Source: Terriglobia bacterium
Lineage (GTDB): Bacteria; Acidobacteriota; Terriglobia; JAJPHL01
Assembly: GCA_963747095.1 (NCBI GenBank)
Contig: CAVVEL010000022.1
Span: 145,193 to 209,192 of the forward strand
Reading direction: 5' to 3'
DNA length: 64,000 bases
A model generated the notes under the pieces. It made no database searches. It saw nothing but the letters and a program-made list of their open reading frames with translations, and was not told the origin of the DNA. The number at the start of each line of letters is the position of its first letter. Within the stretch, counting starts at the first letter, position 1. Positions 10,037 through 33,662 of this stretch are shown here, in pieces. Position numbers and translations under genes: made by a program.

Positions 10037-10909
10037 TTATCCCCATCTCGTCTTGCAGTACTCGATTGCCTCCCGCGTAGACAACTGTCGGGTTGAGTTC
10101 CCCGCTCGAATATACAGGTGCTCGCCGCCGCTCCCATCGGGAACGAAGACAGCTCTCCGCGCTGGTCTTGCGGACGCGCGGCACACATCACTACCCTCCA
10201 CGTTTTCGAAGTCGATTCCAATCAGTGGGCTGATGTCCTTTCCAAAAGCCCCGAGCAAGAGTGTCACGAGGAAATTTTCGAAACCGTCTCTGTCTTGTTT
10301 TTTGAGGGTCTTATAGTCATTCTCCAGGCCGACCACGTGACCGCTGTCATCAACCCCAATCAGCAGGAAGCCACCCTCAGAGTTCAGGAATGCTGCTACG
10401 GTCTTGACAATAACGACCTCCAACTCGTGATTTATCTTCTTAAGCCGTACATCCCAGCGAGCCGAAGTCTTAAACTCCAGTCCAGTGCTCTCACCTCTCT
10501 TGATCATCACAGAGACTGGTTCTTCGGGTAGCTTATTCAACGCCTTTCTTACTCGCGCTTGGAGCTCGTTGACGAGATCTTTCTTGCCCTTCGAAATGTA
10601 GTCGAAGGCGCCCACCTTCATACTCTCGACAGCATCTTCAAGCTCCGCGAAACCAGTGAGAATGATCCCTCGTAGGTCAGGCAATGTCTCTCGCAAACGG
10701 CCAAGCAGTGCAATACCAGACACTTCACTCGAAATTCGTTGATCGAGAATCGCGAGGGAAAAGTGCTCTGCCCGCGCCATTGCTTCTGCCTCTCTTGGAT
10801 CCGTTGTAACATGCAATTCATACTCACTCCCAAGCATGTCTTGGATTGTCTCGAGCCATGACTGCTGGTCGTCCACCACCAAGATCCGATGCCTATGCAT
10901 ACAAATCAC
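10037..10909 (-). CDS. Response regulator: N-terminal REC domain fused to AlbA_2 (Schlafen-like) domain
   Basis: REC: 'ILVVDDQQSWLETI...LAILDQRI...ILTGF'. AlbA_2 signature 'ESTGLEFKTS...VKTVAAFLNSEGGFLLIGVDDSGHVVGLE'. 4-nt overlap with the upstream gene. Confidence 0.75.
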   Translation of the reverse strand: MICMHRHRILVVDDQQSWLETIQDMLGSEYELHVTTDPREAEAMARAEHFSLAILDQRISSEVSGIALLGRLRETLPDLRGIILTGFAELEDAVESMKVGAFDYISKGKKDLVNELQARVRKALNKLPEEPVSVMIKRGESTGLEFKTSARWDVRLKKINHELEVVIVKTVAAFLNSEGGFLLIGVDDSGHVVGLENDYKTLKKQDRDGFENFLVTLLLGAFGKDISPLIGIDFENVEGSDVCRASARPARRAVFVPDGSGGEHLYIRAGNSTRQLSTREAIEYCKTRWG

Positions 10910-12165: not shown

Positions 12166-12911
12166 GTGGCTCCGCCCACAAGGGGAACCGTAATGATAAA
12201 CGAGGCTCCTCTTCCGAACTCACTCTCAACCCTGATCTTGCCGCCAATGAAATCAAGCTGAGTTCGAACTAGCCATAATCCTAAACCGCTGCCTTCAACT
12301 TTCGTCGTAAAGTCCGGTTCGAAAATTCTCCCCTGATCCTCTAGCTTAATGCCTGGTCCATTGTCCTTGATCTCCACGGCCGCACAGCCAACCCATCCAC
12401 CTACTCCCTTCGATGTAGTCACCGTAACTACACCTCTCCTCGTACTCTGTAGCGCCTGGTATGCGTTGATAATGATATTTCTAATTAGTTGAGTAAACTG
12501 AGTACGATACACCTCGCATACGAGGGGTGTCTCGCAGGGAAACACCTTTAACTTCACTGCCTGGGCGTTCTCCAAATGAGACAAGTCGAGTGCCTCCATC
12601 GCATCGCGTACTACTTCATTAATGTCTAGCGGCCCCTTGTCTCCCATGCGATTGGGTGCCAAACCAGCAACCTTATTAGCAAATTCCGTTGCCTGGTTTG
12701 CCGCATCCTGAATAAGTGACAGCTTTCGATCAATTCGTTCGTTCGCCACGCCAATTAACTTTCTTATCCCAATTACATTCGCCGGAATCAATCCGGAAGT
12801 ATTGTTGATTTCGTGAGCCACTGCCCTGACCAGCAAGGACAGATTGGCGTTTCTGTCGGCAATGGCCACAAGCCTGTCATTGGCCACCTTGTACATTTGA
12901 GCATTCTCCAC
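12162..12911 (-). CDS. HisKA+HATPase_c histidine kinase module; almost certainly the C-terminal part of 12877..14991 (one REC-GAF3-HK gene split by a 1-nt indel)
   Basis: H-box 'VRAVAHEINN', G-boxes 'IKDNGPGI', 'GSGLGLWLV'. Upstream of the called start the same frame reads 'ADYVGVAVENAQMYKVANDRL', the canonical GAF C-terminus. Confidence 0.75.
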   Translation of the reverse strand: MENAQMYKVANDRLVAIADRNANLSLLVRAVAHEINNTSGLIPANVIGIRKLIGVANERIDRKLSLIQDAANQATEFANKVAGLAPNRMGDKGPLDINEVVRDAMEALDLSHLENAQAVKLKVFPCETPLVCEVYRTQFTQLIRNIIINAYQALQSTRRGVVTVTTSKGVGGWVGCAAVEIKDNGPGIKLEDQGRIFEPDFTTKVEGSGLGLWLVRTQLDFIGGKIRVESEFGRGASFIITVPLVGGAT

Positions 12912-14991
12912 AGCGACGCCAACATAGTCCGCAAAGGTCCTGAAGAGACTCGAGATCGGCCTCGCAGTAGCGCAGATCGTCCCCGACCTTGTTAATGACC
13001 TTCATCGCACCCACGGTCTTGTCCTTTGCGACTATAGGGACCACCATAAGCGAATCAATATTTCGGATCTCTTTATGCTTCTTCTTCAAGAACGCGCAGA
13101 TTATGTTGTCATACTTGCCATCGTTCTCCTGCGGCGATACTTGAAGCCACGCTCTACCCGTATGGGCAACGGATCCAGTAACACCTTCACCCATGTTATA
13201 GAACGCACCAGTTATCATGGGCATGCCATATGATTGCCTCAATACTATCCTGCCTTCACTGTCGCGCAGGAACAACATACAAATCTCAGCCTGCATTACT
13301 TTCGCCATTTGCTCAATGGTCACCGCCAGGACGTCTTCAATATTCAGTGCCGAACTAATCACCCGCCCAACTTCACCGAGAGAGCGTAGTTGCTCCACTT
13401 GAAGTTCTTTCTCCTTGACCAATTCCGCGTTGCTGATTGCAACGGCGAGATGGCTAGCGGTGATCTCGAGCGCATTTCGGCAGTCACCGCTGAAACCGCG
13501 TTCGAGGAGGCAGTGAAAATCCTGATGGGGCGGGACCCGACCGTAATGCTTCGATTTCTTATTCATCGCACGCAAGACGCCCCGCACCTGATCACCTATC
13601 CGTATCGGCACGCCCAGATAATGAGCCACTTTCCTCGACGGAATATTGTCCAGATAACCCTCTTTTCCGGTGTGATCATACCGCTTGTCCTCCAACGGTG
13701 TCACACGGACGGAGGCCTTAGGATCCGGGAGCTGGATCGTCTCCTGATTCTTAAACACAGCACCAACCAAGCTCTCTCCCGGTCGATAAAACTCTGACGG
13801 TGTCTCGACACGTCTCCCGCCACGGAACTCCGCTACATTCTCGATCACTTGGGTGAGTTCGTTGTAAAGAAAGATAGAAATTACTTCCGGATGCACGATC
13901 GCTGAGATGCCTTGGATAACAGCTGTGTAAATCTGCGGAATGACGTCCGGCCCTTTTAGCCGGCCAATCTTGTTTAACATTTCGCTGATTTGGCTGTAGT
14001 CTCGGTGAATCTCGCCCCGGATCCTCTGCAGCCATGCCTTCGTGAGCGTCAGAGCCGCTAGAGTAACGAACTCACTTACAATACTGGCGCGTTGATCGTC
14101 GAAAAAGGCAACACGGTCTGCGCTGACATTGATCACGGCGTTAACAGCTTGGCCGAAGAGACCGGTGGTGATGGGAATGATATACGCGGAGCGAGCCCGT
14201 TGTAGGTAGAGGCGTTGGGCTGGGGGCGTGGCCTGGTCGGAGAGGGCGGCATCCGCGACCTTCCTGAAATTCACGTCCTTCTGCAAGTCACGGATGTTTG
14301 CAGGACTTCCCGTCTCGACAACTCCTCCGGAAAATGGGTCGCCTTTTGCCTTTGGGAGGGTAAACATCTGGCGCTGAGCTTCGTCTGTACCAGCAAACCC
14401 GCCCAGGCGATAATCCCCATACTCCAGGTCGTACACCCGTATGTGACAGGTGTACGCGCCAACGGTTGATCTAACAGCCGTGCAGATCTCATCGAGAATC
14501 GCCTCGATCTTCTCGTTGGCGCTGATCTTCTGCTGTACATCCAAGAGCAGACGAAGCTTGCGGTTGACCTGTTCCCTCTCGAGATCTTTGAAGGCTTGGT
14601 CTACAGAGAAGCGCAGGGCTTCAGTCCCCGTTTTTGGGAGATAGTTGAAGATCTTATATTCGCCTGCACGTTCGGCCGGCAGGCGACTCTCGTGACCTGT
14701 CAATACGATTACTCTGTATTCAGCCGAACGGTCCTTAATAGCTTCGAGAATGGCGGTACCGGCAACTGTTCCGAGAGACTCAAAGGAGAGGTCGAGTAGA
14801 ATTACTCGAATCTCCGGCTGGTCTCGTAAGATCGCGATACCTTCGTCGGGCGATTCAGCTTCAATGAACGTATAGTTGTCATTCCGGAAAAGATGCTTAA
14901 CCGTCTCACGCGATAACAGTTCATCGTTGACTAGCAGTACGGCTCTACTCATGTTAGTGCTTGCCCCCACATTTGATGATTTCCTGGTCAA
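12877..14991 (-). CDS. REC + three GAF domains (N-terminal part of a hybrid REC-GAF3-histidine kinase)
   Basis: REC 'VLLVNDELLSRETV...VILLDLSF'. Three GAF-like blocks. The last 18 aa ('CGLCWRRCGECSNVQGGQ') are out-of-frame junk. A frame switch at ~12945-12950 (extra T in 'cttt') restores 'LESLQDLADYVGVAVENAQMY'. Confidence 0.75.
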   Translation of the reverse strand: MTRKSSNVGASTNMSRAVLLVNDELLSRETVKHLFRNDNYTFIEAESPDEGIAILRDQPEIRVILLDLSFESLGTVAGTAILEAIKDRSAEYRVIVLTGHESRLPAERAGEYKIFNYLPKTGTEALRFSVDQAFKDLEREQVNRKLRLLLDVQQKISANEKIEAILDEICTAVRSTVGAYTCHIRVYDLEYGDYRLGGFAGTDEAQRQMFTLPKAKGDPFSGGVVETGSPANIRDLQKDVNFRKVADAALSDQATPPAQRLYLQRARSAYIIPITTGLFGQAVNAVINVSADRVAFFDDQRASIVSEFVTLAALTLTKAWLQRIRGEIHRDYSQISEMLNKIGRLKGPDVIPQIYTAVIQGISAIVHPEVISIFLYNELTQVIENVAEFRGGRRVETPSEFYRPGESLVGAVFKNQETIQLPDPKASVRVTPLEDKRYDHTGKEGYLDNIPSRKVAHYLGVPIRIGDQVRGVLRAMNKKSKHYGRVPPHQDFHCLLERGFSGDCRNALEITASHLAVAISNAELVKEKELQVEQLRSLGEVGRVISSALNIEDVLAVTIEQMAKVMQAEICMLFLRDSEGRIVLRQSYGMPMITGAFYNMGEGVTGSVAHTGRAWLQVSPQENDGKYDNIICAFLKKKHKEIRNIDSLMVVPIVAKDKTVGAMKVINKVGDDLRYCEADLESLQDLCGLCWRRCGECSNVQGGQ

Positions 14992-15481
14992 GCACGTCGT
15001 AGTCCAACGGTTTATTGACGAAGCCCTCGCCGAGCTGCAGAGATCTTTCGATGTTATACGGAGTGTTATCTGCGGATATGAAGATAACTGGCGTGTTAAA
15101 TCCTTGCGCTCGCATCATCTCACATACCTCGAACCCATTCCTTTCTGGCATCTTGATGTCTAGGAGAACAAGGTCAATGGCATCCGTACCGCCCATGATA
15201 TCGAGCGCCATGTCTCCGCCTTCGGCCTCAGCAACGTCGGCGCCATATTGTTGAGAAAGCCAAACGGCGAGAGCAGTGCGAAAAATGTCAGTGTCATCCA
15301 CAATCAGTATCCGGCGCAGCCACGGGATCCTATGACGGATGAGGGCATCATCTACGAAAGGCGGGTCAATAGGAGTATTGGAACCGTCTCCCTCCGCACC
15401 GTTCGCAAGAACAAAGTGAAACGCTGGAATATTCACCACGATTGTAAGACCCATGAATTTGGGGGGCGCAAAAGTCGTCAA
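14954..15481 (-). CDS. Single-domain response regulator (REC)
   Basis: 'RRILIVDDTDIFRTALAVWL...LVLLDIKMPERNGFEVC...PVIFISA'; stop overlaps the downstream start. Confidence 0.7.
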   Translation of the reverse strand: MTTFAPPKFMGLTIVVNIPAFHFVLANGAEGDGSNTPIDPPFVDDALIRHRIPWLRRILIVDDTDIFRTALAVWLSQQYGADVAEAEGGDMALDIMGGTDAIDLVLLDIKMPERNGFEVCEMMRAQGFNTPVIFISADNTPYNIERSLQLGEGFVNKPLDYDVLDQEIIKCGGKH

Positions 15482-18216
15482 GCGCGTGTCTCCTTTGGAA
15501 CGGGATGGGCTGGGTGGCTTGCTTGAGTGTCGGTCTGTGCCTGTGCGAGCCGAAACGCTGGCAGAGTGAGCCGAAAACAGATTCCACCACCCTCTTGGGA
15601 CTCAACTACGATGGCGCCACCGTGGCCTTCGAGGATTGTCTTGCTGATGAAAAGGCCGAGACCGCTACCCGTCTCTTTCGTTGTGAAGAGAGCGGTGAAG
15701 AGACTCGTTCTAATATCCTCTGAGATTCCGCAACCATTGTCGCACCAGACGACTAGGATGTCGGCACCTGCGATTGTCATCGCGAGGTTGATCCGCCCGC
15801 CGTATTTCCAACCTCTGGTCGCCCTGATAGCCTTGATCGCGTCGATGGAGTTACCAAAAAGATTTGCGAATACCTGACGTAGCTGATCAGCATCAGCAAG
15901 CACCAGCGCGTCGTCCTCCGGGTACGTAGCCCGGAATTCGACACGACTGGCTTCGGCGCGCTTCTTCATGCTGGCTTCAAACGCCTGGAGAATAGCCTTG
16001 AGCGACACGACCTGCATCGTTGGTGCCGGTGGACTGGCTGTCATGAGAAGATTCTGTAGCTTGCCAAGGGCGCTATTACTTGCCTCGCGGATTGCCGCGT
16101 ACGTCTCAACCGTCGAACCGCCTCTTGATTGTTGTTGTAAGGTCGTCACATATGTCAGGACGGCGCCAAGATCATGCTTGATGTCATGGCCTGTCTTCTC
16201 AGCCAGCTTCCGAAGCGCGGCCAGCGTATCCAGGCGAACCTTCTCCCGTTCCTGGCGGAGCACTTCCCTTTCGTCCTTGAAAACGCCAAGGCGGCCTATT
16301 TCCTTTCCCGCGTTGTCGAGAAAGAGGGTCGCGGACATCCGGATGGGAATAACATTTCCTTGCACATCTCGAATTCGGACACGGCGGTCCCAGATCACAT
16401 GATCCCTGGCTTGGCGAAGATCACGGACAATCTGCTTGGCATCTTCCGGAAATTCGAAATAAGTCTCCACAGACGTGCCCAAAACGTCCTTCTCGATCAT
16501 TCCCCAAATGTTCTCGCATTGCCGGTTGAAGTTCTGAATCTTTCCTAGTTTATCGACCACGATGATTGGATCTGGAGAATTGTAAACTAAATTCTGGAAA
16601 TATTTGTTGCTTTCAATGAATTCGGCATTTCGGATTGCTGAGACGATCTGGGTAGCGATCAGTTTTAGAAGGTCGAAATCTTCTGGTTGAAAACCGTCAC
16701 GAGACAGGCTTGTGCGACCGGCTGGCGGGTCGTAGTCCGGCGCTTTCTTGTTGAGGACTCTGATAACCCCGAGGATGTCACCGCCGATGAGTAGGGGTAC
16801 CCCTATATAGTGACGGGTCTCCCGGGAAGGCAGGAGGCCCGAATAAACATCGGCGTAGTCCTCGTCACGCGGTATCGGGTTCAGCAGGCTCCCTTGCTTG
16901 CTTGCAAATACTCGTCCGGTGAGGCTCTCGCCTTTCTTGTAGAAACGCTCTACCTCCTTGAGCCTCGCGGTCGTCTCGGAATCTGGGCCCGCTACAGCCA
17001 CCTTCTCCAATCTAGCGCCTGCATCCCTGACCACGAAGAGAGCAGCCTCTTCCGAGCGGAGCTCCGCCGAGACAAGCTCCACTACTTTCTGGAAAACCTT
17101 ATCGAGGCCCTGTTCCGCCCGTAGTTGGTGGCCGATCTCGCTAAGCAAATTCAAGCGGCCTTTGTTTTCGTTGTCACGAGACGCGAGGTCTCGATATAGC
17201 TGGGCGTTCTTGCGCGCCATCACGATCAAGGGAGCCATGCTCAACAACTTCCGTACATCGTTAAATGTGTAGTAGTGGAGCCGGTCGCGCGAGAATACTC
17301 CGAGAACACCCAGGAGCGTGCCGTCAATGTTTAAAGGAACAAGGTTCGCAGGGAGGACGGCATTGCCGGGCGAGTCGGGCAACGGAAACGTGGCACGAGT
17401 GCGCCATTCTAACTTTGCCTCTTTGCGGACTCGGTGATAATACTGTTCCACGAAACGGATGGCCTCTGACTCGTCTGATTTATTCCTCGTGAGACTAGTG
17501 TCCACTGGGCTCGCCAACGCATATGTAGCCGTTATCTTCTCACCTTCAACGAGGGCGACCGCGCCGACATCGGAGTTGGTTATCTCCATCGCGGTGCTCA
17601 AGATTGACCGCATGACTTGCGTGATGTCCGCATTTGCTAAGATTTCCCGGTCGATCTTCTCGATCGCAGTGACAAGATTTGCCTCCGCGCGGTCGCGCAT
17701 CCTCGCAAGATTCGTCGCGGTTAGCGCGACTCCTATTTGAACCGCCGCCCAAAGCCAAAACTCGTAGCCACCGCGGCCGCTATCTACAATTCGGACACTG
17801 CCCGCGATCGCGTAGAGAAGTGAGGAGAAGATCGCGACCAAAATGGCGCTAACCGGGCCCAAATACCTCGCTTGGGACAGTATGGGGAAGAGATATAGAA
17901 GGTGCCACGGGCTTCGGAAGCCACCAGTTGAGTTGACCAGCAACGAGATCGCGACCAGGTCCAGCAAGTCCCGAAATGCACGGAACCTTTTCTTCCGGAG
18001 CAGCGGAGACTGCGGGAGTGCGATAGCAAGAATGGTCGCGAGGTAAAAGATGATGATCCAGGAAATACGCTTGGGATGATCGAACACCGGGGTAAACCGC
18101 ACGGCCAGGAGAGTTGCGATCGAGACTGCAAGACGTGTCTGCACCGTCCGTATCCCTGGGTGCAGAGCATGAGTCAGGTTTGCCTTGGCGAGCGCTGATT
18201 GAAGCCGACTCAGCAT
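15478..18216 (-). CDS. Membrane-anchored sensor histidine kinase (multi-TM N-terminus, GAF/PAS region, HisKA, HATPase_c)
   Basis: N-terminal hydrophobic helices; 'HDIKHDL' H-box; 'DNGCGI', 'GSGLGLFISK' ATP-lid motifs at the C-terminus. Confidence 0.8.
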   Translation of the reverse strand: MLSRLQSALAKANLTHALHPGIRTVQTRLAVSIATLLAVRFTPVFDHPKRISWIIIFYLATILAIALPQSPLLRKKRFRAFRDLLDLVAISLLVNSTGGFRSPWHLLYLFPILSQARYLGPVSAILVAIFSSLLYAIAGSVRIVDSGRGGYEFWLWAAVQIGVALTATNLARMRDRAEANLVTAIEKIDREILANADITQVMRSILSTAMEITNSDVGAVALVEGEKITATYALASPVDTSLTRNKSDESEAIRFVEQYYHRVRKEAKLEWRTRATFPLPDSPGNAVLPANLVPLNIDGTLLGVLGVFSRDRLHYYTFNDVRKLLSMAPLIVMARKNAQLYRDLASRDNENKGRLNLLSEIGHQLRAEQGLDKVFQKVVELVSAELRSEEAALFVVRDAGARLEKVAVAGPDSETTARLKEVERFYKKGESLTGRVFASKQGSLLNPIPRDEDYADVYSGLLPSRETRHYIGVPLLIGGDILGVIRVLNKKAPDYDPPAGRTSLSRDGFQPEDFDLLKLIATQIVSAIRNAEFIESNKYFQNLVYNSPDPIIVVDKLGKIQNFNRQCENIWGMIEKDVLGTSVETYFEFPEDAKQIVRDLRQARDHVIWDRRVRIRDVQGNVIPIRMSATLFLDNAGKEIGRLGVFKDEREVLRQEREKVRLDTLAALRKLAEKTGHDIKHDLGAVLTYVTTLQQQSRGGSTVETYAAIREASNSALGKLQNLLMTASPPAPTMQVVSLKAILQAFEASMKKRAEASRVEFRATYPEDDALVLADADQLRQVFANLFGNSIDAIKAIRATRGWKYGGRINLAMTIAGADILVVWCDNGCGISEDIRTSLFTALFTTKETGSGLGLFISKTILEGHGGAIVVESQEGGGICFRLTLPAFRLAQAQTDTQASHPAHPVPKETRA

Positions 18217-20031: not shown

Positions 20032-20319
20032 ATGTCGAAGACACACACGGGCGCCATTCGAAGATACACTGGCCCTGAGCCCTGCATCTTCGTGAGCTAC
20101 GCCCAAGTCAACAGTGCGGATGTGTTTCCCGACATCACCCGCCTGCACGGAAAGAAGCGGGAAACGGTAGAATACCTGGATCTGGGACGCGGCGGCATTC
20201 ATGTAGCCGAATACCTCACCGAGTTGCCTCCGCGCGAGGTATTGCGCGAGCGCTTCCATCAGGCGCTGGCAACTGCGCGTGAAAGGCTGGCGAGTGGCGG
20301 AGAGAAGCAAAGCTCATGA
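20032..20319 (+). CDS. Small hypothetical ORF (95 aa) whose stop overlaps the hsdR start
   Basis: ATGA overlap with 20316; no recognisable domain. Confidence 0.25.
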   Translation: MSKTHTGAIRRYTGPEPCIFVSYAQVNSADVFPDITRLHGKKRETVEYLDLGRGGIHVAEYLTELPPREVLRERFHQALATARERLASGGEKQSS

Positions 20320-23300
20320 ACACGGTCGGCCAGATCGAGAAGAAGACGCAGCGGCGCGTGGTGAAGCTGTTCCGCGACGTACTCGGCTACGACTATCTTG
20401 GCGATTGGACCGACCGGGAGATCAATAGCAATATTGAAACGGACCTCCTGGAGAAGTACCTGCGAGAAGAGCGCGGTTACGAAGATAGTCTGATTGCCCG
20501 CGCCTTGCACCTGTTTTTGAAAGCGGCAGGCGATACCAGCAAGAGCCTTTACGACCGCAACCGCGAAGTTTACGGCATGCTGCGCTACGGCGTGAAGGTG
20601 AAAGCCGAGCAGGGTGAGAATACCCAAACGGTTTGGCTGATCGACTGGAAGCGTCCCGAGCGGAACCATTTCGCCCTCGCGGAAGAAGTGACGGTGCTGG
20701 CGAACGACGCCAAGGCTCATACTAAACGTCCCGATATCGTGCTCTACGTCAACGGGATTGCCTTGGGAGTGCTGGAACTCAAGCGCTCCATCGTCTCTGT
20801 CGCGGAAGGCATCCGGCAGAATCTCGACAATCAGAAGAAGGTCTTCATCGAGCATTTCTTCTCCACTGTGCAACTGGTGATGGCCGGCAACGACACGGAG
20901 GGTCTGCGATACGGTTCTATCCAGACACAGGAAAAGTACTACCTGACGTGGAAAGAGGAGAGTGCCATCGAGAAACCGATGGACCGCGCCCTGACCCAGC
21001 TTTGCGGGAAGGCCCGCTTGTTGGAGTTGATCCATAACTTTGTGGTATTTGACGCCGGGACAAAGAAGCTTTGCCGTCCCAACCAGTACTTTGGCGTGCA
21101 CGCGGCACAGGAGCATGTGAAACGCAGGGAGGGTGGGATTATCTGGCACACCCAAGGCTCAGGCAAGAGCCTGACGATGGTGTGGCTGACCAAATGGATT
21201 CGCGAGAACGTGAAGGATGCCCGGGTACTTGTCGTCACCGATCGAACGGAACTCGATGAGCAGATCGAGGGCGTCTTCAAAGGCGTGAACGAACAGATCT
21301 ACCGGACGGAAAGCGGAATGGATCTGATCGCGCGACTGGACGGCTCGACGCCGTGGCTGCTCTGTTCCCTGATCCAAAAGTTCGGCGCGAAGAGTAAGGC
21401 CCGAGAGAAGGAAGACGAAGAGGGTGACATTGGCGGTTATCTTCGCGAACTAAAGGATGCCGTGCCGCCCGGCTTTTCGGCCAAAGGGAATCTGTTCGTG
21501 TTTGTGGACGAGTGTCACCGCACTCAGTCCGGCGACCTGCATGACGCCATGAAGGCGATCCTGCCAAACGCCGTCTTCATCGGCTTCACGGGCACACCGC
21601 TGTTGAAGAAGGACAAGCGGAAGAGCATCGAGGTGTTCGGGCGCTACATCCACACCTACAAGTTTGACGAAGCCGTGCGCGACAAGGTGGTCCTTGACCT
21701 TCGTTACGAGGCGCGGGATATCGACCAGAACATCACGTCACAGGCCAAGATCGACCAGTGGTTCGAAGCCAAGACAAAAGGCCTTACGGACCTGGCCAAA
21801 GCCAGCTCAAGCAGCGCTGGGGCACGATGCGGAAGGTGCTTTCCAGCCAATCGCGGCTCGAGAAGATTGCGGCTGAAATCCTGATGGACATGGAAACACG
21901 CGATCGACTGGCAAGTGGTCGAGGGAACGCTGTTCTCGTGTCGGGCAGTATCTATCAGGCGTGCCGGCTATACGAGATCTTCGCCAAGACCGATCTTGCG
22001 GGCAAGTGTGCGATCGTCACCTCCTACCGGCCATCGCCGAACGACCTAAAGGGCGAGGAGAGCGGCGAAGGACTGACGGAAAGGCTCCGGCAGTATGAGA
22101 TCTACCAGAAGATGCTCGCGGATTGGTTCAACGAACCACCTGAAACCGCCGTGACCAAGTCCGAGAAATTTGAAGATGCGGTGAAGGACAAATTCATCCA
22201 TGAGCCCGGCCAGATGAAGCTGCTGATCGTTGTCGACAAACTGCTCACCGGCTTCGATGCCCCGCCGGCCACCTATCTTTACATCGACAAGCAAATGCGC
22301 GATCACGGTCTTTTCCAGGCGATTTGCCGCGTGAACCGCCTGGATGGAGAAGACAAGGAATACGGCTACATTGTCGACTACAAGGATCTGTTCAAGAGCT
22401 TGGAAGGCGCGGTGAACGATTACACTTCCGGGGCGCTCGATGGCTTCGACGCAGAGGATGTCGCCGGATTGCTGGAAGACCGGCTGGCCAAAGCGCAAGA
22501 ACACTTGGAAGAGGCGCGTGAGGCTGTTAAGGCGCTTTGCGAACCGGTGGATGCGCCAAAGGACTCGGCGGCGTACCTCCGCTACTTCTGCACCAAGGAT
22601 GCCGGAGACGCGGAACAGCTAAAGCAGAACGAACCAAATCGGCTGGCGCTCTACAGGTACGTTGCGGCACTGGTTCGGGCGTTCGCGAATGTCGCCAATG
22701 AAATGAGCGAGGCGGGCTACACGCCCGCCCAAACCGAGTTGATCCGAGACGAAGTGGGTCACTACGAGAAGGTGCGTGGCGAAGTGAAACTGGCTAGTGG
22801 CGACTACGTCGATTTGAAGATGTACGAGCCCGCGATGCGGCACCTGATCGACACCTACATCCGAGCCGAGGACAGCGTGAGTCTCTCGGCGTTCGATGAC
22901 CTTTCACTGGTGGAATTGATTGTGGAGCGTGGTCCGGACGCGGTCAATGCGCTGCCGAAGGACCTCCGCGACAACAAAGAGCTTGCCGCTGAAGTGATCG
23001 AGAACAACGTCCGCCGATTGATCATAGACGAACAGCCAATCAATCCCAAGTACTACGAGAAGATGTCCGAGCTACTTGACCTGCTGATCGCTCAGCGGAA
23101 GAAAGAGGCGATGGAGTATCAGCAGTATCTCCAGAAGATCGTCGCGTTGGCCAAGCAGGTAATGAGCCCATCCGGCGAATCCTACCCAGTCAAGGTGAAT
23201 TCGCCAGCGCGGCGGGCACTCTACGATAATCTTGGCAAGGATGACAGCCTCGCTTTGGCGGTGGACGAGGCCGTACGAACGAGTCGGCAAGACGAATGGC

Positions 23301-23416
23301 GCTCCAATCCGTTCAAGGTGAAGAAGGTCCGGCTCGCCATCAAGCAGGCGCTCGCCGGCGACGAGGCTCTTACAGACCAAGTGCTGGAACTGGCAAAGAA
23401 CCAAAATGAGTACTGA
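20316..23416 (+). CDS. hsdR: Type I restriction enzyme R subunit (HsdR), split into two ORFs by a frameshift near 21795; orphan (no hsdM/hsdS in the window)
   Basis: N-terminal 'VVKLFRDVLGYDYLGDW'; helicase motif I 'IIWHTQGSGKSLTMVWL'; motif II 'VFVDECHRTQSG'; 'FIGFTGTPL'; motif VI 'QAICRVNRL' in the second ORF. Junction: 'LTDLAK|AQLKQRWGTMRK'. Confidence 0.75.
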
Positions 23417-24134
23417 GCAAGGCAAGCTGACGGTCCAAGGATTAGGGATCGAGGTTGTTCGCAAGGACATCAAGAATCTCCATCTGGGGGTCTATCCTCC
23501 AAACGGCCGAGTACGCGTGGCTGCGCCGTTGAGAATCAGCGACGCCGCGGTACGCCTGGCGGTCGTCGCAAAACTCGGATGGATTAAACGGCAGCGCGAG
23601 AAGTTCGGTGCGCAGCCGCGCGAATCGAAACGGGAGATGGTCAGCGGCGAGAGTCACTACTTTCTTGGACGCCGGTACAGGTTGCGCGTGGTCAAGGGCC
23701 CGGGACCGTCTGCCGTAAGGCGATTGGGCAGGGCGTTCATCGAGATGCATGTTGCCGACGGCGCGACAAGAGAGGAGCGCGAGCGTGTTCTCCACCGCTG
23801 GTATCGCCAGAGGCTCAGGGAGCTGGCGCGCCCGATGATCGAGAAATGGCAGGTGTCGCTAGGGGTCGAAGTACGATCCTGGGGCATCAAGAGGATGAAG
23901 ACGAAGTGGGGCACTTGTCACGAAGATGCCGGACGCTTCTGGATCAACCTCGAGCTTGTCAAGAAGCCGGTCCATTGCTTGGAGTACATCATTGTCCATG
24001 AGCTTACGCACCTTCTGGAACGGCATCACAACGACCGATTCGTCGCAATCATGAATAGGCATCTCCCACAGTGGCGGCTTTACCGAGACGAATTGAACGC
24101 CGAGCCGCTTGCCCACGAGACATGGACGTATTAA
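23406..24134 (+). CDS. YgjP-like (DUF45/WLM-type) zinc metallohydrolase
   Basis: 'YIIVHELTHLLERHHNDRF' HExxH motif; family known to neighbour type I hsdR genes. Confidence 0.7.
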   Translation: MSTEQGKLTVQGLGIEVVRKDIKNLHLGVYPPNGRVRVAAPLRISDAAVRLAVVAKLGWIKRQREKFGAQPRESKREMVSGESHYFLGRRYRLRVVKGPGPSAVRRLGRAFIEMHVADGATREERERVLHRWYRQRLRELARPMIEKWQVSLGVEVRSWGIKRMKTKWGTCHEDAGRFWINLELVKKPVHCLEYIIVHELTHLLERHHNDRFVAIMNRHLPQWRLYRDELNAEPLAHETWTY

Positions 24135-24167: not shown

Positions 24168-27100
24168 ATGCTCCCACAACTTGGCAACTACGAGGTGAAG
24201 GAAGAGATAGGGCGCGGCTCGATGGGAGTGGTTTACCGCGGCTGGAGTCCCAGTCTGTCCAGAGACGTCGCCCTGAAGACGATGTTGCCACCGTTGGTTT
24301 CTTCCGGCGCCAATTTCGTCAAAAAATTTGCTCGCGAGGCCCGCGTCGCCGCAGGTCTCAACCATCCCAACATCGTTACGATTTACGAGGTGAATGAAAG
24401 CGATCCTCAGAATCCCTTCATCGTCATGGAGTTCCTAAAGGGTCATGATCTGAAGACGCTGATCAACACGAAAGCACCGATCCCGCTGGTGCGCAAACTG
24501 GAAATCTGCCTGCAAGTCTGCCGCGGACTTCAACACGCGCACGAGAAATCTGTTGTTCATCGAGACTTCAAACCGGAAAATGTCTTTGTCGGAGATGATG
24601 GCCAAGTCAAGGTCCTCGACTTCGGTTTAGCGCAGATCGCTAAGGACAGCACGTTGTCACAGTCCGGGACCATGGTGGGAACGCTCCGATACATGACACC
24701 GGAGCATTTCATAGATCCCCGCACAGTCGATGCACAGTCCGACCAGTTTTCCATGGCTATTGTCTTCTATGAGTTCTTAACGGGGACTCATCCCTTCCCG
24801 GCGACCACTTACGAAAACATGATGTACCGGATTCTCAGTGGAGATCCGCCGCGCCCACCGAGTCAGCTGATCACGGAGAGCTGCCCGCCGCAAATTGATG
24901 GGGTCTTCGAGAAGGCGTTTCAGCGCAAAAAAACCCTTCGTTTCAGGACCGTCGCCGACTTCTCCACAAGGCTCGAGGGGGTAGCTGCGCTGTTGCGTTC
25001 GGAGATGGCCAATCGCCACGTGACCGAGGGGAAGCTGGCGCTATATGAGAAGCGCTACTTCGAGGCCATGGAGTGCTTCCAGAAGGCCATGGACCTGGAC
25101 CCTTCGAATCTGGACATCGTGCCTCTGCAGGATGAGGCTGAAACGCTTTGGCAGATCCGTGTTTTGACGGATTCGGCGGAAAAGGAGATTGCTGGCGAGA
25201 ATCATGAACTCGCCGAAGAACTACTGAGCCAGATTCTGCAACTGGATCCCACCCACGAGTGGGCGCGGCGAAATCACGACACACTCGTCAGCCGGAAGAA
25301 GAAGATCGAGGATGGATTGGAGCAGGCTCAGGACCTTATGGACGCGGACAACTATCGGGGCGCAAGGGCCTGCCTGGAGGAAGTTCGCTCTGTCGATCCG
25401 CATCGAGCCGCGCTGATTTCCATGATGTCGTCGGTGAAGACAAGGTTGGACGAAATCGAACGTCACGTGGAACGCGCGCAGCAAGCCTGCCAGGAACGGC
25501 GACTGCCGGAGGCTCGCTCCGCCGTGCAGCAGATCCAAAAGCTCGATCCGTCGACCCCCGAACTCGTGGGATTGCTCCAGGGATTGGATAGGCTCGAACG
25601 CGAGGCTTTGCGGTTAAAGCAGGACGCGGAACAACAACTCCATAGCAACCGTCTCAGGAACCATGTCAAGAAAATCAGCGAGGCCCTGGAGAACCGGCGG
25701 TTTGATGAGGCCGTCGTCATCGCCGAGGATACCGAATTCGCAAACACCATTCCCGTTTCCGCGGTGCGGCGTGAGGCGCTGGTCCTACGAGCCTTACATC
25801 GCGCCGAGGCGCTGGCGAATAGTCGTAGGTTTTCCGATGCCGTGGTGATTCTCAAGGCCGCCCTTGCCGAGATTGAGGACCCGCGCCTGGTCGAACTCCT
25901 GAAGACCATCCAGGAAACGCAGGAGGAACTGGAAAGGCAGTGGAGAGAACGGCAGCAGTACAGGATACAGGAAGAAGCCAAAAAGGCGGCTGTGGCAGAG
26001 AAGGAAAGAAACGAGCGAACGGCGAAAGAGGCTGCCGCGCAAAAAGCCCGGGAAGAGGCGGCTCGAGAGGCGGCGAGAAGAAGCTGGGAAGAAGCAGCTA
26101 AAGATTCTGTCGCGCTAGAAGCGCGTGAAGCAGCGGCAAGGGCAGCCGCTGCGCATTTGCCACCCCCAATTTCCCGCGGAGCGGAGGTGTCAACTTCGAC
26201 CTCCAGAAGCGTGTTGCAGGGCGTAGGGGGTCTGTTGCTTGGGATTCTGGCGTTACCGACGTTGGTCTTACGCAGGTGGCAAGGAAGGGGGGAACCGGCT
26301 GCTCCCAAAGACATTGCTTTGCCGCCTCCTGCCAACGAAGAGCGTGGTTCACGTGACCACAGTCGGTCTAAAGCGAAAAAAGGCCCACCGAAGGTTCCGA
26401 CAGAACAATTAGACCACGGCAGTTTTTCTGCCACACCGCCTGGGGCGATGCGGCCGGGAGAGTCCGTTCAACTTGATGAAAACGTCCAGTTCACGGTTTA
26501 TCGCCCGGCTGTAGTGCAAGTGGGCAAATGGTATACCCTCCTGGCTTTTGCGCACCTGTCCGAGCGCCGCCCAGGGACGTCATCAAGCGAACCCGACCCG
26601 CTTGAACAGGTAACGCGCCAAGCTGCGGCAGTACTGGCGGAGGATACCGAGCGCTACCGCCGTGTAAGCGAAGACAGCACGCGTGCGGTTCCGCAAGAAG
26701 CAGAACTCACTTTTGTTCCTGAGATCCCCGGTGTCGAATTCAACCCCCCTCGCCGTACCTTTCTCTGGCAGGAAAGCGTGCATCGCGAAGAGTTCCGGAT
26801 GCAGGCTGGGTTAGTCCTGCAAGGACAAGTCGCCCGCGGTCGCCTGACGGTATTTCACGGCAGCATCATCATTGGGGATGTTCCCCTTAGCATTCGCGTG
26901 GGTGGCGCTGAGGTAGAGAGACAAGTGAGTGCGACCGTCAGTCCCTACCGCAGGATCTTCGCCTCCTATTCACACCGGGACGTGGCCATCGTTGAAGAGT
27001 GTGAGCAGTTCGCTCGCAGTGTCGGGGATAAATATCTTCGTGACATGCTCGACCTGAGTGCTGGCGAGGTTTGGGATGAGCGGCTTAGACAGATGATCCA

Positions 27101-27524
27101 GGACGCCGACGTGTTTCAATTGTTTTGGTCATGGAACGCGATGCGCTCCGGCTTTGTGCGGCAGGAATGGGAGCACGCTCTGTCGCTCGCCAACAAGGGT
27201 CCGGCGTTTATTCGTCCAGTCTACTGGGAGGAACCGCTGCCCAAAGATCGCGCGCAGGGCTTGCCTCCTGAGGGACTCAAGAGACTCCACTTTCAACTGC
27301 TGCCCAGGCGCTCGATGTGGCGGCGTTTTCTTCTGGTGGCTGGTGGAGTCACTTGGCTGGTTCTCTCAGCCGTTTTTGTAATGACGGAGATGAGTTGGTG
27401 GCAAAGAACCCCTTGGGGTCCCGTGGCAGCCAGAAGCGCCTCGGTTCTAGCAGGATCGTCCGCGCTGGCATTCTTTGTGGCATTGCTCAGAGTCGTTTCG
27501 AGAAAGCGAGCCGGGTCTTGGTAA
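24168..27524 (+). CDS. Ser/Thr protein kinase - TPR/coiled-coil - TIR domain - C-terminal 2 TM protein (1118 aa)
   Basis: Kinase: 'GRGSMGVVYRG', 'HRDFKPENVFV', 'DFGLA', 'GTLRYMTPE'. TPR-like repeats and a Glu/Ala/Lys-rich coiled coil. TIR: 'RIFASYSHRDVAIVEECEQFARSVG...VFQLFWSWNAMRSGFVRQEWEHAL'. Two terminal hydrophobic helices. Confidence 0.8.
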   Translation: MLPQLGNYEVKEEIGRGSMGVVYRGWSPSLSRDVALKTMLPPLVSSGANFVKKFAREARVAAGLNHPNIVTIYEVNESDPQNPFIVMEFLKGHDLKTLINTKAPIPLVRKLEICLQVCRGLQHAHEKSVVHRDFKPENVFVGDDGQVKVLDFGLAQIAKDSTLSQSGTMVGTLRYMTPEHFIDPRTVDAQSDQFSMAIVFYEFLTGTHPFPATTYENMMYRILSGDPPRPPSQLITESCPPQIDGVFEKAFQRKKTLRFRTVADFSTRLEGVAALLRSEMANRHVTEGKLALYEKRYFEAMECFQKAMDLDPSNLDIVPLQDEAETLWQIRVLTDSAEKEIAGENHELAEELLSQILQLDPTHEWARRNHDTLVSRKKKIEDGLEQAQDLMDADNYRGARACLEEVRSVDPHRAALISMMSSVKTRLDEIERHVERAQQACQERRLPEARSAVQQIQKLDPSTPELVGLLQGLDRLEREALRLKQDAEQQLHSNRLRNHVKKISEALENRRFDEAVVIAEDTEFANTIPVSAVRREALVLRALHRAEALANSRRFSDAVVILKAALAEIEDPRLVELLKTIQETQEELERQWRERQQYRIQEEAKKAAVAEKERNERTAKEAAAQKAREEAAREAARRSWEEAAKDSVALEAREAAARAAAAHLPPPISRGAEVSTSTSRSVLQGVGGLLLGILALPTLVLRRWQGRGEPAAPKDIALPPPANEERGSRDHSRSKAKKGPPKVPTEQLDHGSFSATPPGAMRPGESVQLDENVQFTVYRPAVVQVGKWYTLLAFAHLSERRPGTSSSEPDPLEQVTRQAAAVLAEDTERYRRVSEDSTRAVPQEAELTFVPEIPGVEFNPPRRTFLWQESVHREEFRMQAGLVLQGQVARGRLTVFHGSIIIGDVPLSIRVGGAEVERQVSATVSPYRRIFASYSHRDVAIVEECEQFARSVGDKYLRDMLDLSAGEVWDERLRQMIQDADVFQLFWSWNAMRSGFVRQEWEHALSLANKGPAFIRPVYWEEPLPKDRAQGLPPEGLKRLHFQLLPRRSMWRRFLLVAGGVTWLVLSAVFVMTEMSWWQRTPWGPVAARSASVLAGSSALAFFVALLRVVSRKRAGSW

Positions 27525-27747: not shown

Positions 27748-27841
27748 TGGCGGAGAGGGAGGGATTCGAACCCTCGTTAGAGGTATTAGCCCCTAAAACG
27801 GTTTAGCAAACCGCCGCCTTCAGCCACTCGGCCACCTCTCC
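27748..27841 (-). tRNA. tRNA-Ser (anticodon GCU), long variable arm
   Basis: Reverse complement reads 'GGAGAGGTGGCCGAGTGGCTGAAGGCGGCGGTTTGCTAAACCG...GGGTTCGAATCCCTCCCTCTCCGCCA': acceptor stem pairs, D-loop 'AGTGG', anticodon loop 'TTGCTAA', T-loop 'GGTTCGAATCC', encoded CCA. Confidence 0.8.
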
Positions 27842-30968: not shown

Positions 30969-32267
30969 ATGAAGCATCTGATTCCTGTTGCCGTGCTGAC
31001 TCTGTGTCTATCGTGTGTTGCGTGGGCCGCATCGCCCGCGACCACTACCGCTCCGACCTTCTCCAAAGAGGTTGCGCCGATCTTCTACAAGAACTGCGTC
31101 GATTGCCACCGTCCCGGCGAGGCTGCCCCGATGTCGCTGCTGACCTTTAAGGATGCGCGGCCGTGGACGAAGTCGATCCGCGAGAAGATCACTGAGCACA
31201 TCATGCCGCCGTGGCAGGCCGATCCGCATTTCGGCAAGTTTTCCAACGATCGCCGCTTAGAGCAAAAGGACATCGACACCATCGTGGCCTGGATCGACGC
31301 GGGCGCCAAGGAAGGCGACGCGAAAGACCTGCCGAAGCAGCCGGAGTATCCCGACGGTTGGTCGATCGGCAAGCCTGACGCGATCTTCAGCATGCCGGAG
31401 GAGTTCAACGTTCCGGCCGAAGGCGTGGTGGAGTATCAACACTGGACCGTCCCCAGCAACTTCACCGAAGACAGGTGGGTGACGGCGGCCGAGATTAAGA
31501 TGGGCAATCGCGCCGTGATCCATCATGCGATTGTATTCGTCTACGATCCCAAGACCGGTCCTTCGCTGCCCGACGGCTTACGCCAGAACCTCGGCAAGCT
31601 GCCGCAGATGCCGCGGGATCCGAAGCGCGCCAGAGTCCAGCAGAAACTGGGCTCGCTCCTGATTGGATCGGGGCCAGGCGACCAGGCCATGTTCATGAAG
31701 CCGGGTCACGGGATGCTGGTGAAAGCCGGCTCGGAATTCATTTTCCAACTTCACTACACGCCCAATGGACATGCCACCAAGGACCTCACCCGGGTGGGCT
31801 TTAGGTTCGCTACGGAGTCGCCGAAATTCGAGGATCGCAATGTGGGCGTTTTGAATGGCCGCTTCGTGATCCCCGCCAACGAGGCCAACTACATGGTGGA
31901 GTCGTCGGCCACCTTTACGGAAGACGCCACCATCATGAGTCTGTTCCCGCACATGCACGTCCGCGGCAAGAGCTTCGAGTTCCGCCTGGTGACGCCCGAC
32001 GGCCACTCGCAAGTTCTGCTGGAAGTGCCGAAGTACGATTTCAATTGGCAGGCCGGCTATAACCTGGCCACGCCGCTGGTCGTGCCCAAGGGTTCGCGGA
32101 TCGAGTGCACCGCGTATTTTGACAATTCCAAAGGGAACAAATTCAATCCCGATCCGTCCAAGGAAGTGACCTGGGGCGATCAAACCTGGGAAGAAATGAT
32201 GATTGGCTTTACCACGTACGCGCTACCCAACAAGCACGTCGCGAGCCCCGCGGAGGGCAGCCGGTAG
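30969..32267 (+). CDS. Secreted protein with N-terminal CxxCH (c-type haem-binding-like) motif; paralog 1
   Basis: Signal peptide; 'FSKEVAPIFYKNCVDCHRPGEAAPMSLLTF...IMPPW'. Confidence 0.6.
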   Translation: MKHLIPVAVLTLCLSCVAWAASPATTTAPTFSKEVAPIFYKNCVDCHRPGEAAPMSLLTFKDARPWTKSIREKITEHIMPPWQADPHFGKFSNDRRLEQKDIDTIVAWIDAGAKEGDAKDLPKQPEYPDGWSIGKPDAIFSMPEEFNVPAEGVVEYQHWTVPSNFTEDRWVTAAEIKMGNRAVIHHAIVFVYDPKTGPSLPDGLRQNLGKLPQMPRDPKRARVQQKLGSLLIGSGPGDQAMFMKPGHGMLVKAGSEFIFQLHYTPNGHATKDLTRVGFRFATESPKFEDRNVGVLNGRFVIPANEANYMVESSATFTEDATIMSLFPHMHVRGKSFEFRLVTPDGHSQVLLEVPKYDFNWQAGYNLATPLVVPKGSRIECTAYFDNSKGNKFNPDPSKEVTWGDQTWEEMMIGFTTYALPNKHVASPAEGSR

Positions 32268-32357: not shown

Positions 32358-33662
32358 ATGAAACGCGCACTGATTCTATCGTTCTTGCCGCTGCTGGCTT
32401 TCGCGGCCGACAACAAGGTCACCAAGCCGGCTCCGACGTTTAACAAGGACATCGCGCCGATCTTCTTCGATCGCTGCGTCAGTTGCCATCGCGACGGCAA
32501 CGTCGCGCCGATGTCGCTGATGACCTATAGCGAGACGCGCCCGTGGATCAAATCCATTCGCGAAAAGGTGGTAGCGCACGTCATGCCGCCGTGGACCGCC
32601 GATCCGGCCTACGGACATTTCCTGAACGATCGCGAGCTTAGCGCCGCGCAGATTGACACCATCAAAACCTGGGTGGATAGCGGCGCCAAGGAAGGCACTC
32701 CCGAGGATCTGCCGCCCACACCGCAGTTCCCCAAGGGATGGAACATCGGCCAACCCGACCAGGTGTTTGAAATGGCCGAGGAGTACAGCGTACCCGCCGA
32801 AGGCGTGGTGGACTATCAACATTTCCTGGTGCCCACCAACTTCAAGGAAGACCGCTGGATTCGGGCCGCGGAAATTCGCAACGTGAATCCCTCGGTGGTG
32901 CATCACGTGATTGTGTTCATCCAGCCGCCGCCCACCGACCGTCCCAAGCCGTTCGGCATTGTGCCGGGCGCGGAATGGCGCACCGATCATCGCGACAAAC
33001 CGGCGGAGATCAAGGGCACCAAACTCAACCGTGAGCGGCTGGGTTATTTTCTGACCGCCACAGGCCCCGGCGAGCGCGGCACGGTGTTTCCGGAGGGCTC
33101 GGGCATGCGCATCCCCGCGGGCTCGAACCTGATTTTCCAGATTCACTACACGCCCAAGGGAACGGCAGTGAAGGATCGCGCCAAGATCGGCCTGTTCTAT
33201 CTGAACCATCCGCCGGAGAACGAAATCCGCACGATTGGCGTTCAGAACGGCCAGTTCGTGATTCCCGCGGGAGAAGGCAACCACCGCGTGGACTCCTCGG
33301 TGACCTTTGCCGAAGACGCCCGCGTCTGGGGCTTGATCCCGCACATGCATCTGCGCGGAAAGAGTTTTGAGTTTCGCCTGATCGCGCCCGACGGCAAATC
33401 GCGCGTAATTCTCTCGGTGCCCAAGTACGACTTCAACTGGCAGATGATCTACAGTCTGGCCGAACCGCTGGTGATCCCCAAGGGCAGCCGCGTGGAGTGC
33501 ACGGCGTATTTCGACAACTCCAAGTCGAACAAGTACAATCCGGATTTCAGCAAGGACGTGAAGTGGGGCGATCAGACCTGGGAAGAAATGATGATCGGCT
33601 TCATGACCTATAGCCTGGACAGCCAGAAGATCAAGCCGGCCTCGGCCGGCGGCGGGCAGTAA
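32358..33662 (+). CDS. Secreted CxxCH protein; paralog 2
   Basis: 'FNKDIAPIFFDRCVSCHRDGNVAPMSLMTY...VMPPW'; alignable by eye with the upstream gene along its whole length. Confidence 0.6.
   Translation: MKRALILSFLPLLAFAADNKVTKPAPTFNKDIAPIFFDRCVSCHRDGNVAPMSLMTYSETRPWIKSIREKVVAHVMPPWTADPAYGHFLNDRELSAAQIDTIKTWVDSGAKEGTPEDLPPTPQFPKGWNIGQPDQVFEMAEEYSVPAEGVVDYQHFLVPTNFKEDRWIRAAEIRNVNPSVVHHVIVFIQPPPTDRPKPFGIVPGAEWRTDHRDKPAEIKGTKLNRERLGYFLTATGPGERGTVFPEGSGMRIPAGSNLIFQIHYTPKGTAVKDRAKIGLFYLNHPPENEIRTIGVQNGQFVIPAGEGNHRVDSSVTFAEDARVWGLIPHMHLRGKSFEFRLIAPDGKSRVILSVPKYDFNWQMIYSLAEPLVIPKGSRVECTAYFDNSKSNKYNPDFSKDVKWGDQTWEEMMIGFMTYSLDSQKIKPASAGGGQ

Follow-up and report, generated by a model that had tools for sequence, protein, structure and literature searches.

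A 64,000-nucleotide stretch of the genome of a Terriglobia bacterium (GenBank assembly GCA_963747095.1, contig CAVVEL010000022.1, positions 145,193 to 209,192 of the forward strand; hereafter the window) contains a gene of 1118 codons whose product joins a Hanks-type Ser/Thr protein kinase domain, a TPR-like helical repeat region and a charged helical stretch to an internal hydrophobic helix, a basic linker, a beta-sandwich domain, a TIR domain and two C-terminal hydrophobic helices (Table 1). The beta-sandwich and the TIR domain are one conserved evolutionary unit, here called the module, which recurs in many bacteria under a variety of partner domains. This family, rather than the atypical gene in the window, is the more interesting object.

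The open reading frame (ORF) of the Terriglobia protein represents a genuine gene without interruptions. Nothing points to a concealed frameshift or an overlooked stop: over its length, the alternative frames on the + strand have 39 and 35 stops, and its codon-position G+C content is coherent except in the low-complexity stretch of residues 600-780. A preliminary description of the locus, made from the sequence alone, had considered that the gene might be a chimera created by a missed stop; no such event was found, and origin through a missed stop or a frameshift was rejected for the given sequence, which is a clean single frame. Promoter and terminator scanning from 23.8 to 27.9 kb of the window gave counts no higher than chance.

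The kinase domain matches the Pfam Pkinase model over residues 8-222 (E = 4e-48), scoring 164.5 bits where 31.7 would suffice. It carries GRGSMG (residues 15-20), VALK with K37, the alphaC glutamate in FAREAR, HRDFKPEN (131-138), DFG (151-153) and TPE (177-179), and its activation loop is rich in Ser/Thr, with six such residues at positions 161-172. All of the catalytic motifs that the preliminary description attributed to this domain are therefore present; the kinase is catalytically complete and looks active. A TPR_2 match (residues 284-314, E = 4.9e-9) begins the repeat region, in which further TPR matches extend to about residue 570 when the middle of the protein is scanned alone, and the Lys/Glu/Ala-rich segment described earlier corresponds to the charged stretch that follows, which may be a coiled coil or a single helix.

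Residues 1-660 align end to end, at 28-31% identity, with Acidobacteria-type receptor kinases of kinase-TPR-transmembrane (TM)-PEGA architecture, and the kinase-TPR-FGS protein P0008 is 41% identical over residues 1-465. Across this group (kinase-TPR-TM-PEGA/CarboxypepD_reg; P0051, P0087 and P0008; 28-41% identity) the kinase and TPR parts correspond to those of the Terriglobia protein, which has the TIR module where the others end in a PEGA-type extracytoplasmic domain or an FGE-sulfatase (FGS) domain of the cytoplasm. The kinase also matches the PADLOC models PD-T4-6 (E = 5e-79) and mad6 (E = 7e-65), through the generic kinase fold only (residues 6-290), and its NCBIfam MAD6 score is 156 bits against a cut-off of 460. 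Although PD-T4-6, Stk2-like and MADS Mad6 systems have the kinase fold in common with it, they have no TIR domain.

A search of 5.8 billion proteins with residues 751-1118 returned 608 homologues, the best 120 being 50-74% identical over about 280 residues. The conserved block is larger than the TIR domain, running from LDENVQFTVYRP (residue 769) to LKRLHFQ (residue 1045). An alignment of 121 sequences has 15 invariant and about 60 near-invariant columns distributed over the whole block, and the Terriglobia protein holds every invariant column of the family. When residues 678-1118 were modelled by AlphaFold2 (AF2) with the homologue alignment, the predicted local distance difference test score (pLDDT) of the module exceeded 90; the 145-residue beta-sandwich modelled alone scored 91.7. 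Pfam has no match to the beta-sandwich (residues 769-913) even at E <= 10, and NCBIfam likewise has no model for it. The region taken for a Thr/Ser/Pro linker in the preliminary description thus contains, after the disordered residues 705-768, this well-folded domain. By fold, the sandwich may be related to the ZU5/UPA (FIIND) domains of ankyrin, UNC5, NLRP1 and CARD8. It has no conserved autoproteolysis site of the H-F-S type: ZU5-like autoproteolysis was rejected because the Ser of the sole His-x-Ser motif (AHLS) is not conserved, being Ala or absent in homologues.

The TIR assignment made earlier holds in both profile and fold searches: Pfam TIR_2 (gathering score 28) matches residues 930-1025 at 45.9 bits, and a fold search confirmed the flavodoxin-like TIR fold. 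The best structural matches are the TIR domains of MyD88, TIRAP, IL-1RAcP and SARM1, the top ones being adaptor TIRs, and comparison of the TIR sequence with the PDB gave chance matches only (SMYD2, E = 0.2). E1000, within FVRQEWEHAL, is invariant in the 121 aligned sequences and in 55 more, and the aromatic residue at position -4 from it is also invariant. By hhalign, E1000 falls on E642 of SARM1 (WVHKEIVTAL), in a weak alignment (E = 0.06). From these sequence features, the TIR domain may be an NAD+-cleaving enzyme (NADase) and may serve as an effector.

The two C-terminal TM helices of the preliminary description were confirmed at residues 1054-1072 and 1092-1110, and a third helix, at residues 682-704, had been missed. 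It lies after the charged helix and before the TIR part, and is as hydrophobic as the other two (Kyte-Doolittle value 2.0). Together with the RRWQGRG and the basic linker that follow, it resembles the N-out/C-in anchor at the N-terminus of module proteins of the stand-alone type, in which a hydrophobic helix without preceding positive charge is followed by an Arg/Lys cluster (e.g., MSATVLVILVLAVALAAFLLLRTRSRG). The module of the stand-alone proteins is followed by a second TM helix and often by an extracytoplasmic OmpA, PEGA or DUF11 domain. Other family members are direct fusions, without TM helices, of the module to kinase, receiver (REC), FHA, Hsp70, NB-ARC/WD40 or DUF4062-STAND domains. 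Because of the charges of the stand-alone anchors and these fusions to cytoplasmic domains, the module is considered to be cytoplasmic, lying beside membrane anchors or between them. The C-terminal hairpin of the Terriglobia protein has charge flanks of +4 (four Arg) and +3 (RKR), from which its module would also lie inside the cell; it is predicted to be held at the inner membrane by this helical hairpin. The closest homologue, P0121 (74% identity), has the same hairpin and its loop motif, SWWxRxPWGP.

Table 1. Positions in the window of the kinase-TIR gene, its domains and neighbouring features.
Feature	Position	Strand	Basis or remark
Whole ORF, 1118 residues	24168..27524	+	ATG start, TAA/TGA end, one frame
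Hanks-type Ser/Thr kinase domain, residues 6-280	24183..25007	+	Pfam Pkinase; motifs K37, D133, N138, D151
TPR-like helical repeat region, residues 284-581	25017..25910	+	TPR_2/TPR_19/TPR_1/TPR_14 matches
Ala/Glu/Lys/Arg-rich charged helical stretch, residues 582-663	25911..26156	+	Read from sequence; codon-position G+C shifted
Internal hydrophobic helix, residues 682-704, VLQGVGGLLLGILALPTLVLRRW	26211..26279	+	Hydropathy; followed by RR; starts at in-frame GTG
Basic, Pro-rich disordered linker, residues 705-768 (64 residues)	26280..26471	+	AF2 pLDDT <50; sequence
Beta-sandwich domain with one inserted helix, residues 769-913	26472..26906	+	Possibly ZU5/UPA-like by fold
TIR domain, residues 927-1045	26946..27302	+	Invariant E1000 (codon 27165-27167) at catalytic-Glu position
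C-terminal hydrophobic helix 2, residues 1054-1072	27327..27383	+	Hydropathy; four Arg before
C-terminal hydrophobic helix 3, residues 1092-1110	27441..27497	+	Hydropathy; RKR after
tRNA-Ser(GCT)	27748..27841	-	3' end faces gene; right edge of lower-G+C island
DndH/HerA/Mad8-like ATPase, 1418 residues	4448-8701	+	PADLOC DndH (3e-20), Mad8, HerA; C-terminal 350 residues
REC-Schlafen/AlbA_2	10037-10906	-	
REC-REC-TIR_2	10906-12162	-	
TIR_2 with P-loop start of STAND/AAA_16 NTPase, 297 residues	19062-19955	+	ThsB-like, PADLOC 6e-17; seems truncated just before HsdR
Type I HsdR, two overlapping ORFs in different frames	20316-21884, 21758-23416	+	Frameshift or pseudogene
YgjP-like metallopeptidase	After HsdR, within 20316-24134	+	Immediately upstream of kinase-TIR gene

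When 1.84 billion representatives of 50%-identity clusters were scored with a profile of the module, 2,233 of them matched at E <= 1e-30. In a set of one genome per GTDB species, 424 module loci were found. Architectures, taxonomy and neighbours were counted for the best 80 of these 424 loci, all of them in metagenome-assembled genomes. Acidobacteriota account for 41 of the 80, Planctomycetota for 17, Myxococcota/'delta' for nine and Verrucomicrobiota for five; the remainder belong to Actinomycetota, Chloroflexota, Gemmatimonadota and others. Two genomes, DATKZY01 and JACCYD01, have two module copies each. A kinase-like domain is part of the module ORF at 23 of the best 80 loci, and in 46 of the 112 proteins among the top 150 cluster representatives that were new relative to earlier searches.

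In the usual layout a kinase (approximately residues 10-300) is followed by a linker of 17-226 residues, the module, and a C-terminal tail consisting of a Pro/Ser/Ala-rich linker of about 100-150 residues and a single hydrophobic helix whose sequence is not conserved. In a few members (P0130, P0198 and L012) the kinase is on the C-terminal side of the module. The fused kinases stem from several lineages, scoring 15-149 bits against the kinase of the Terriglobia protein, and many of them, especially in Pyrinomonadaceae and Blastocatellia, are pseudokinases in which HRD is replaced by CDF or CEF...PAD, and DFG by PLIFN; others keep all catalytic residues. A shared pseudokinase pattern was seen at approximately residues 40-320 of L046, L044, L039, L056, L037, L048, L062, L063, L055 and L042, where the kinase fold is conserved but non-catalytic.

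The partners of the module in the same polypeptide also include receiver and FHA domains, zinc ribbons, NB-ARC/WD40 and DUF4062-STAND, and, on the extracytoplasmic side after the second TM helix, OmpA, PEGA, CarboxypepD_reg and DUF11 domains. An Hsp70-like ATPase is present in ten of 55 non-kinase representatives, and DUF4062 likewise in ten of the 55. A recent report identifies DUF4062 as a defence-system NADase that is TIR-like (bioRxiv 10.64898/2026.05.01.722283). Surveys of conflict systems in bacteria with complex lifestyles described effector domains placed under many inputs, and counted TIR, Ser/Thr kinase, FHA and receiver domains among such effector domains (PMC7159879, PMC8195603). 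As a conserved unit joined to many alternative inputs, the module therefore acts as a self-contained output or adaptor unit.

Several family members are of unusual composition. Large proteins include a TIR-NB-ARC-module-WD40 protein (L007:119-3331), an Hsp70-like-module-TPR protein (L008:4038-7331) and a DUF4062-STAND-module-kinase protein (L012:3310-7935). P0241 (1378 residues) has two kinase-like domains, tandem modules at residues 305-585 and 1050-1330, and one tail anchor. In occasional members, including P0126 and P0148 (loci with such fusions are L005:10001-12773 and L004:10001-11401), the module is joined to pieces of type VI secretion proteins, namely the N-terminus of TssB/VipA, with VipB fragments downstream, and the C-terminus of TssK/VasE. 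These fusions may reflect a functional link or gene decay; the P0126 locus resembles a decayed remnant of a type VI secretion system. ImpA_N is fused to the module in two of the 55 non-kinase representatives (alignment A3). At eight of the 80 loci, in Thermoanaerobaculia, the gene directly upstream of the module gene encodes an 865-residue protein with a TIR-like start (KIPVFVSSP) and a DUF4231 (SLATT-type membrane) domain (e.g., L024:2711-5305, + strand). The kinase-module homologue P0234 adjoins a TIR-STAND gene and another TIR gene.

The closest counterparts of the Terriglobia protein are kinase or pseudokinase-beta-sandwich-TIR_2-tail-anchor proteins of Acidobacteriota, Planctomycetota, Myxococcota and Verrucomicrobiota (P0234, P0169, L040 and L078), which are annotated only as 'hypothetical' or 'TIR domain-containing protein'. 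They have the same module (50-59% identity, with the same invariant residues), a kinase domain and a C-terminal anchor. Whereas these relatives have a single tail anchor and often a pseudokinase, the Terriglobia protein has a two-helix hairpin anchor, an additional helix in the gap between kinase and module, and a complete kinase. TIR effectors are well known, as are Hanks kinases. The combination of Ser/Thr kinase and TIR is not unique to it, because kinase, module and C-terminal anchor occur together commonly in a large family. The preliminary description knew of no characterised kinase-coupled, membrane-anchored TIR effector, and in this respect it agrees with the literature: full-text searches found no study of a bacterial kinase-TIR or membrane TIR-kinase protein, nor of a beta-sandwich+TIR module. 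Any suggestion of uniqueness does not survive the 23 loci and 46 representatives with a kinase-like domain.

The gap between kinase and module is about 490 residues in the Terriglobia protein (400 residues of TPR region and charged helix, then a hydrophobic helix and basic linker), compared with the typical 17-226. Its kinase is of a different lineage from those of the canonical kinase-module proteins, which are not nearer to it than the receptor-type homologues are. In the simplest history, an Acidobacteria-type kinase-TPR chassis would have been joined, in an independent event, to a whole stand-alone gene of TM-module-TM type, of which the helix at residues 682-704 would be the vestigial N-terminal anchor. 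No convincing ribosome-binding site or promoter was found before the in-frame GTG codon at 26211.

The gene ends 224 bp from the tRNA-Ser(GCT) gene. From positions 1 to 28000 of the window the G+C content is 0.51-0.58, compared with 0.60-0.65 in the rest, and this lower-G+C block is probably a partly decayed genomic or defence island integrated at the tRNA. A search for attachment sites from 1 to 30 kb found no second tRNA-Ser 3' end and no meaningful direct repeats, leaving the left end of the island undefined. Five consecutive ORFs on the + strand at 436-8701, the last of which encodes the DndH/HerA/Mad8-like ATPase, have no Pfam match and perhaps constitute an unusually composed restriction module of Dnd/MADS type. 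An operon-like run on the - strand, from 18216 to 10037, encodes a 912-residue membrane histidine kinase and a receiver-like 704-residue protein (both recognized by reading the translation), a HATPase_c protein, and the REC-REC-TIR_2 and REC-Schlafen proteins; it would be a two-component system with TIR and Schlafen-like outputs. No hsdM or hsdS gene was noticed among the ORFs examined near HsdR. On the other side of the tRNA, two adjacent genes (30969-32267 and 32358-33662, + strand) encode close paralogues of about 432 residues, each with a CxxCH haem motif, an N-terminus resembling a signal sequence and a C-terminal part resembling Cu2_monoox_C.

The Terriglobia protein does not correspond to any of the known TIR-containing defence systems with which it was compared. 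Its TIR domain differs from those of Thoeris ThsB, TIR-SAVED/Cap, TIR-STING, SpbK and Cat1 by the beta-sandwich, the membrane tether and the coupling to a kinase. In sequence it is unrelated to any TIR of solved structure, and no gene for a partner sensor, a cyclase or ThsA was found among the neighbouring ORFs scanned. No SIR2, Macro or SLOG domain of a Thoeris system was detected in the Pfam-scanned ORFs of positions 436-32267 (excluding 12877-14991 and 15478-18216), and the protein matches the ThsB model only at E = 6e-4. Domains of CBASS, Pycsar or type III CRISPR systems (SAVED, STING, cNMP-binding and CARF) are absent from the protein and from scanned neighbouring ORFs (about 10 kb), the SAVED_TIR model matching its TIR part only. 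It has no P-loop domain such as that of Avs-type STAND proteins, although some homologues of the module do have a STAND NTPase. In animals, the TLR/IL-1R-MyD88-IRAK pathway and SARM1 present TIR and kinase domains in one pathway and a TIR domain near the membrane, and in plants the TIR proteins of group 16 combine TIR and kinase in one polypeptide (PMC7075850). There is no sequence-level relation to these animal and plant systems: the kinase is of the bacterial Hanks type and not IRAK/Pelle, there is no death domain, and the likeness is in logic only.

From its domain composition and its place in a probable defence island, the Terriglobia protein may be a single-polypeptide, kinase/TPR-regulated, membrane-tethered TIR NADase effector. 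The kinase/TPR head would sense some trigger, for instance a phosphorylation state or a protein arising from a phage or from stress, and would alter the oligomeric state of the protein. TIR domains would thereby be brought together at the membrane, where the E1000 site would cleave NAD+, and depletion of NAD+ or a nucleotide signal would lead to growth arrest or abortive infection. This reading of the whole protein as a regulatory head with a TIR effector is offered tentatively, as a possibility that falls somewhat short of probable. Several observations weigh against it. The full architecture is a singleton among the 5.8 billion proteins searched, no other protein having this head with the module, and its island neighbours show decay, with a split HsdR and a truncated TIR-STAND gene. 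If both kinase and module lie in the cytoplasm, the helix at residues 682-704, which 681 cytoplasmic residues precede, cannot cross the membrane, and no helix is found between kinase and module in other members (none of 23 loci and none of 46 representatives). Clustering of neighbouring ORFs at the 80 loci revealed no conserved partner gene, the only large clusters being shadow ORFs of the module gene itself, and at least one homologue is located among housekeeping genes. Strong conservation of the module across phyla is unusual for a gene in an arms race. Many of the fusions carry pseudokinases, and therefore phosphotransfer is not essential to the mechanism of the family.

Some of these observations would be accommodated if the module were a non-enzymatic, membrane-proximal scaffold, that is, a platform for TIR-TIR or TIR-partner contacts in ordinary signalling (envelope, development or cell-cell behaviour), with kinase, REC and FHA domains as its phospho-signalling partners. 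Identity of 50-59% over at least seven phyla and 45 invariant columns suggest that purifying selection preserves a fixed interaction; more than one copy is present in several genomes; the neighbourhoods are variable and partly those of housekeeping genes; and adaptor TIRs at the top of the structural matches, together with frequent pseudokinases, point the same way. Neither the catalytic-position glutamate nor the aromatic residue at -4 varies, however, the module is recurrently fused to STAND NTPases, DUF4062 and Hsp70-like ATPases, which are typical partners in conflict systems (PMC7159879, PMC8195603; bioRxiv 10.64898/2026.05.01.722283), and the Terriglobia copy lies within a defence island. 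A scaffold is on balance unlikely, while being an alternative to take seriously. Another alternative concerns this one copy: as the island decayed, loss of a stop codon or a deletion could have joined a kinase-TPR receptor gene to a stand-alone TM-module-TM gene, yielding a recent and possibly non-functional chimera of which the product is mis-inserted or only the C-terminal part is made, from the GTG at 26211. Such an accident would explain why the full architecture is found only in this protein, why helix 682-704 with its RR resembles the N-terminus of stand-alone homologues and starts at that GTG, and why other kinase-module proteins have no helix there; the adjacent HsdR is split, and the TIR-P-loop gene is cut to 297 residues. 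A clean frame of 3.4 kb with all kinase and TIR motifs intact is not what would be expected of it, kinase-module fusions have been selected repeatedly elsewhere, initiation at 26211 has no convincing ribosome-binding site or promoter, and the hairpin shared with P0121 marks the C-terminal part as a maintained lineage. A recent, possibly non-functional chimera is judged rather improbable.

The odd number of hydrophobic helices also allows a topology like that of PknB-like receptor kinases, in which kinase and TPR region are cytoplasmic, helix 682-704 spans the membrane and the beta-sandwich and TIR domain form a periplasmic sensor; homologous kinase-TPR proteins do have exactly one TM helix followed by an extracytoplasmic domain. 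The positive-inside rule (helix 1 is followed by RR and helix 3 by RKR, and helix 2 is preceded by four Arg), the strongly basic 64-residue linker after helix 1, the TM-less fusions to cytoplasmic domains throughout the family, and the absence of a substrate outside the cell for a TIR domain that acts on NAD+ make this arrangement very improbable. Slightly less credible still is an artefact of metagenome assembly that joined unrelated parts in frame. The record is of metagenome type and the gene is known from one contig only, but neither G+C content nor codon-position composition breaks anywhere along the ORF, the junction has no repeat, and a chance in-frame join that preserves 1118 codons is unlikely. 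The regulated TIR effector accordingly is retained as the working interpretation, in its tentative form.

TIR domains have a central role in the immunity of animals, plants and bacteria, and the characterised bacterial TIR proteins compared here are either stand-alone or coupled to nucleotide sensors or STAND NTPases. In the family described here, the TIR domain is welded to an unannotated beta-sandwich on the cytoplasmic face of the membrane, with a kinase or pseudokinase partner in about a third (30-40%) of the best matches. In the broadest interpretation, which is speculative and rather doubtful, the beta-sandwich and TIR domain would define a large, apparently undescribed family of membrane-tethered TIR proteins that is a new class of single-protein immune or suicide sensor, and a bacterial counterpart, possibly the source, of the receptor-TIR-kinase and FIIND-adaptor logic of animals. 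Should the module prove to be an NADase, TIR activation would follow a new regulatory logic, acting at the membrane through phospho-signalling or a pseudokinase scaffold; should it prove to be a scaffold, its TIR would be unusual among bacterial ones in working like an animal adaptor TIR. The module family is abundant in Acidobacteriota, Planctomycetota and Myxococcota, soil phyla whose defence repertoire has, to our knowledge, been little explored.

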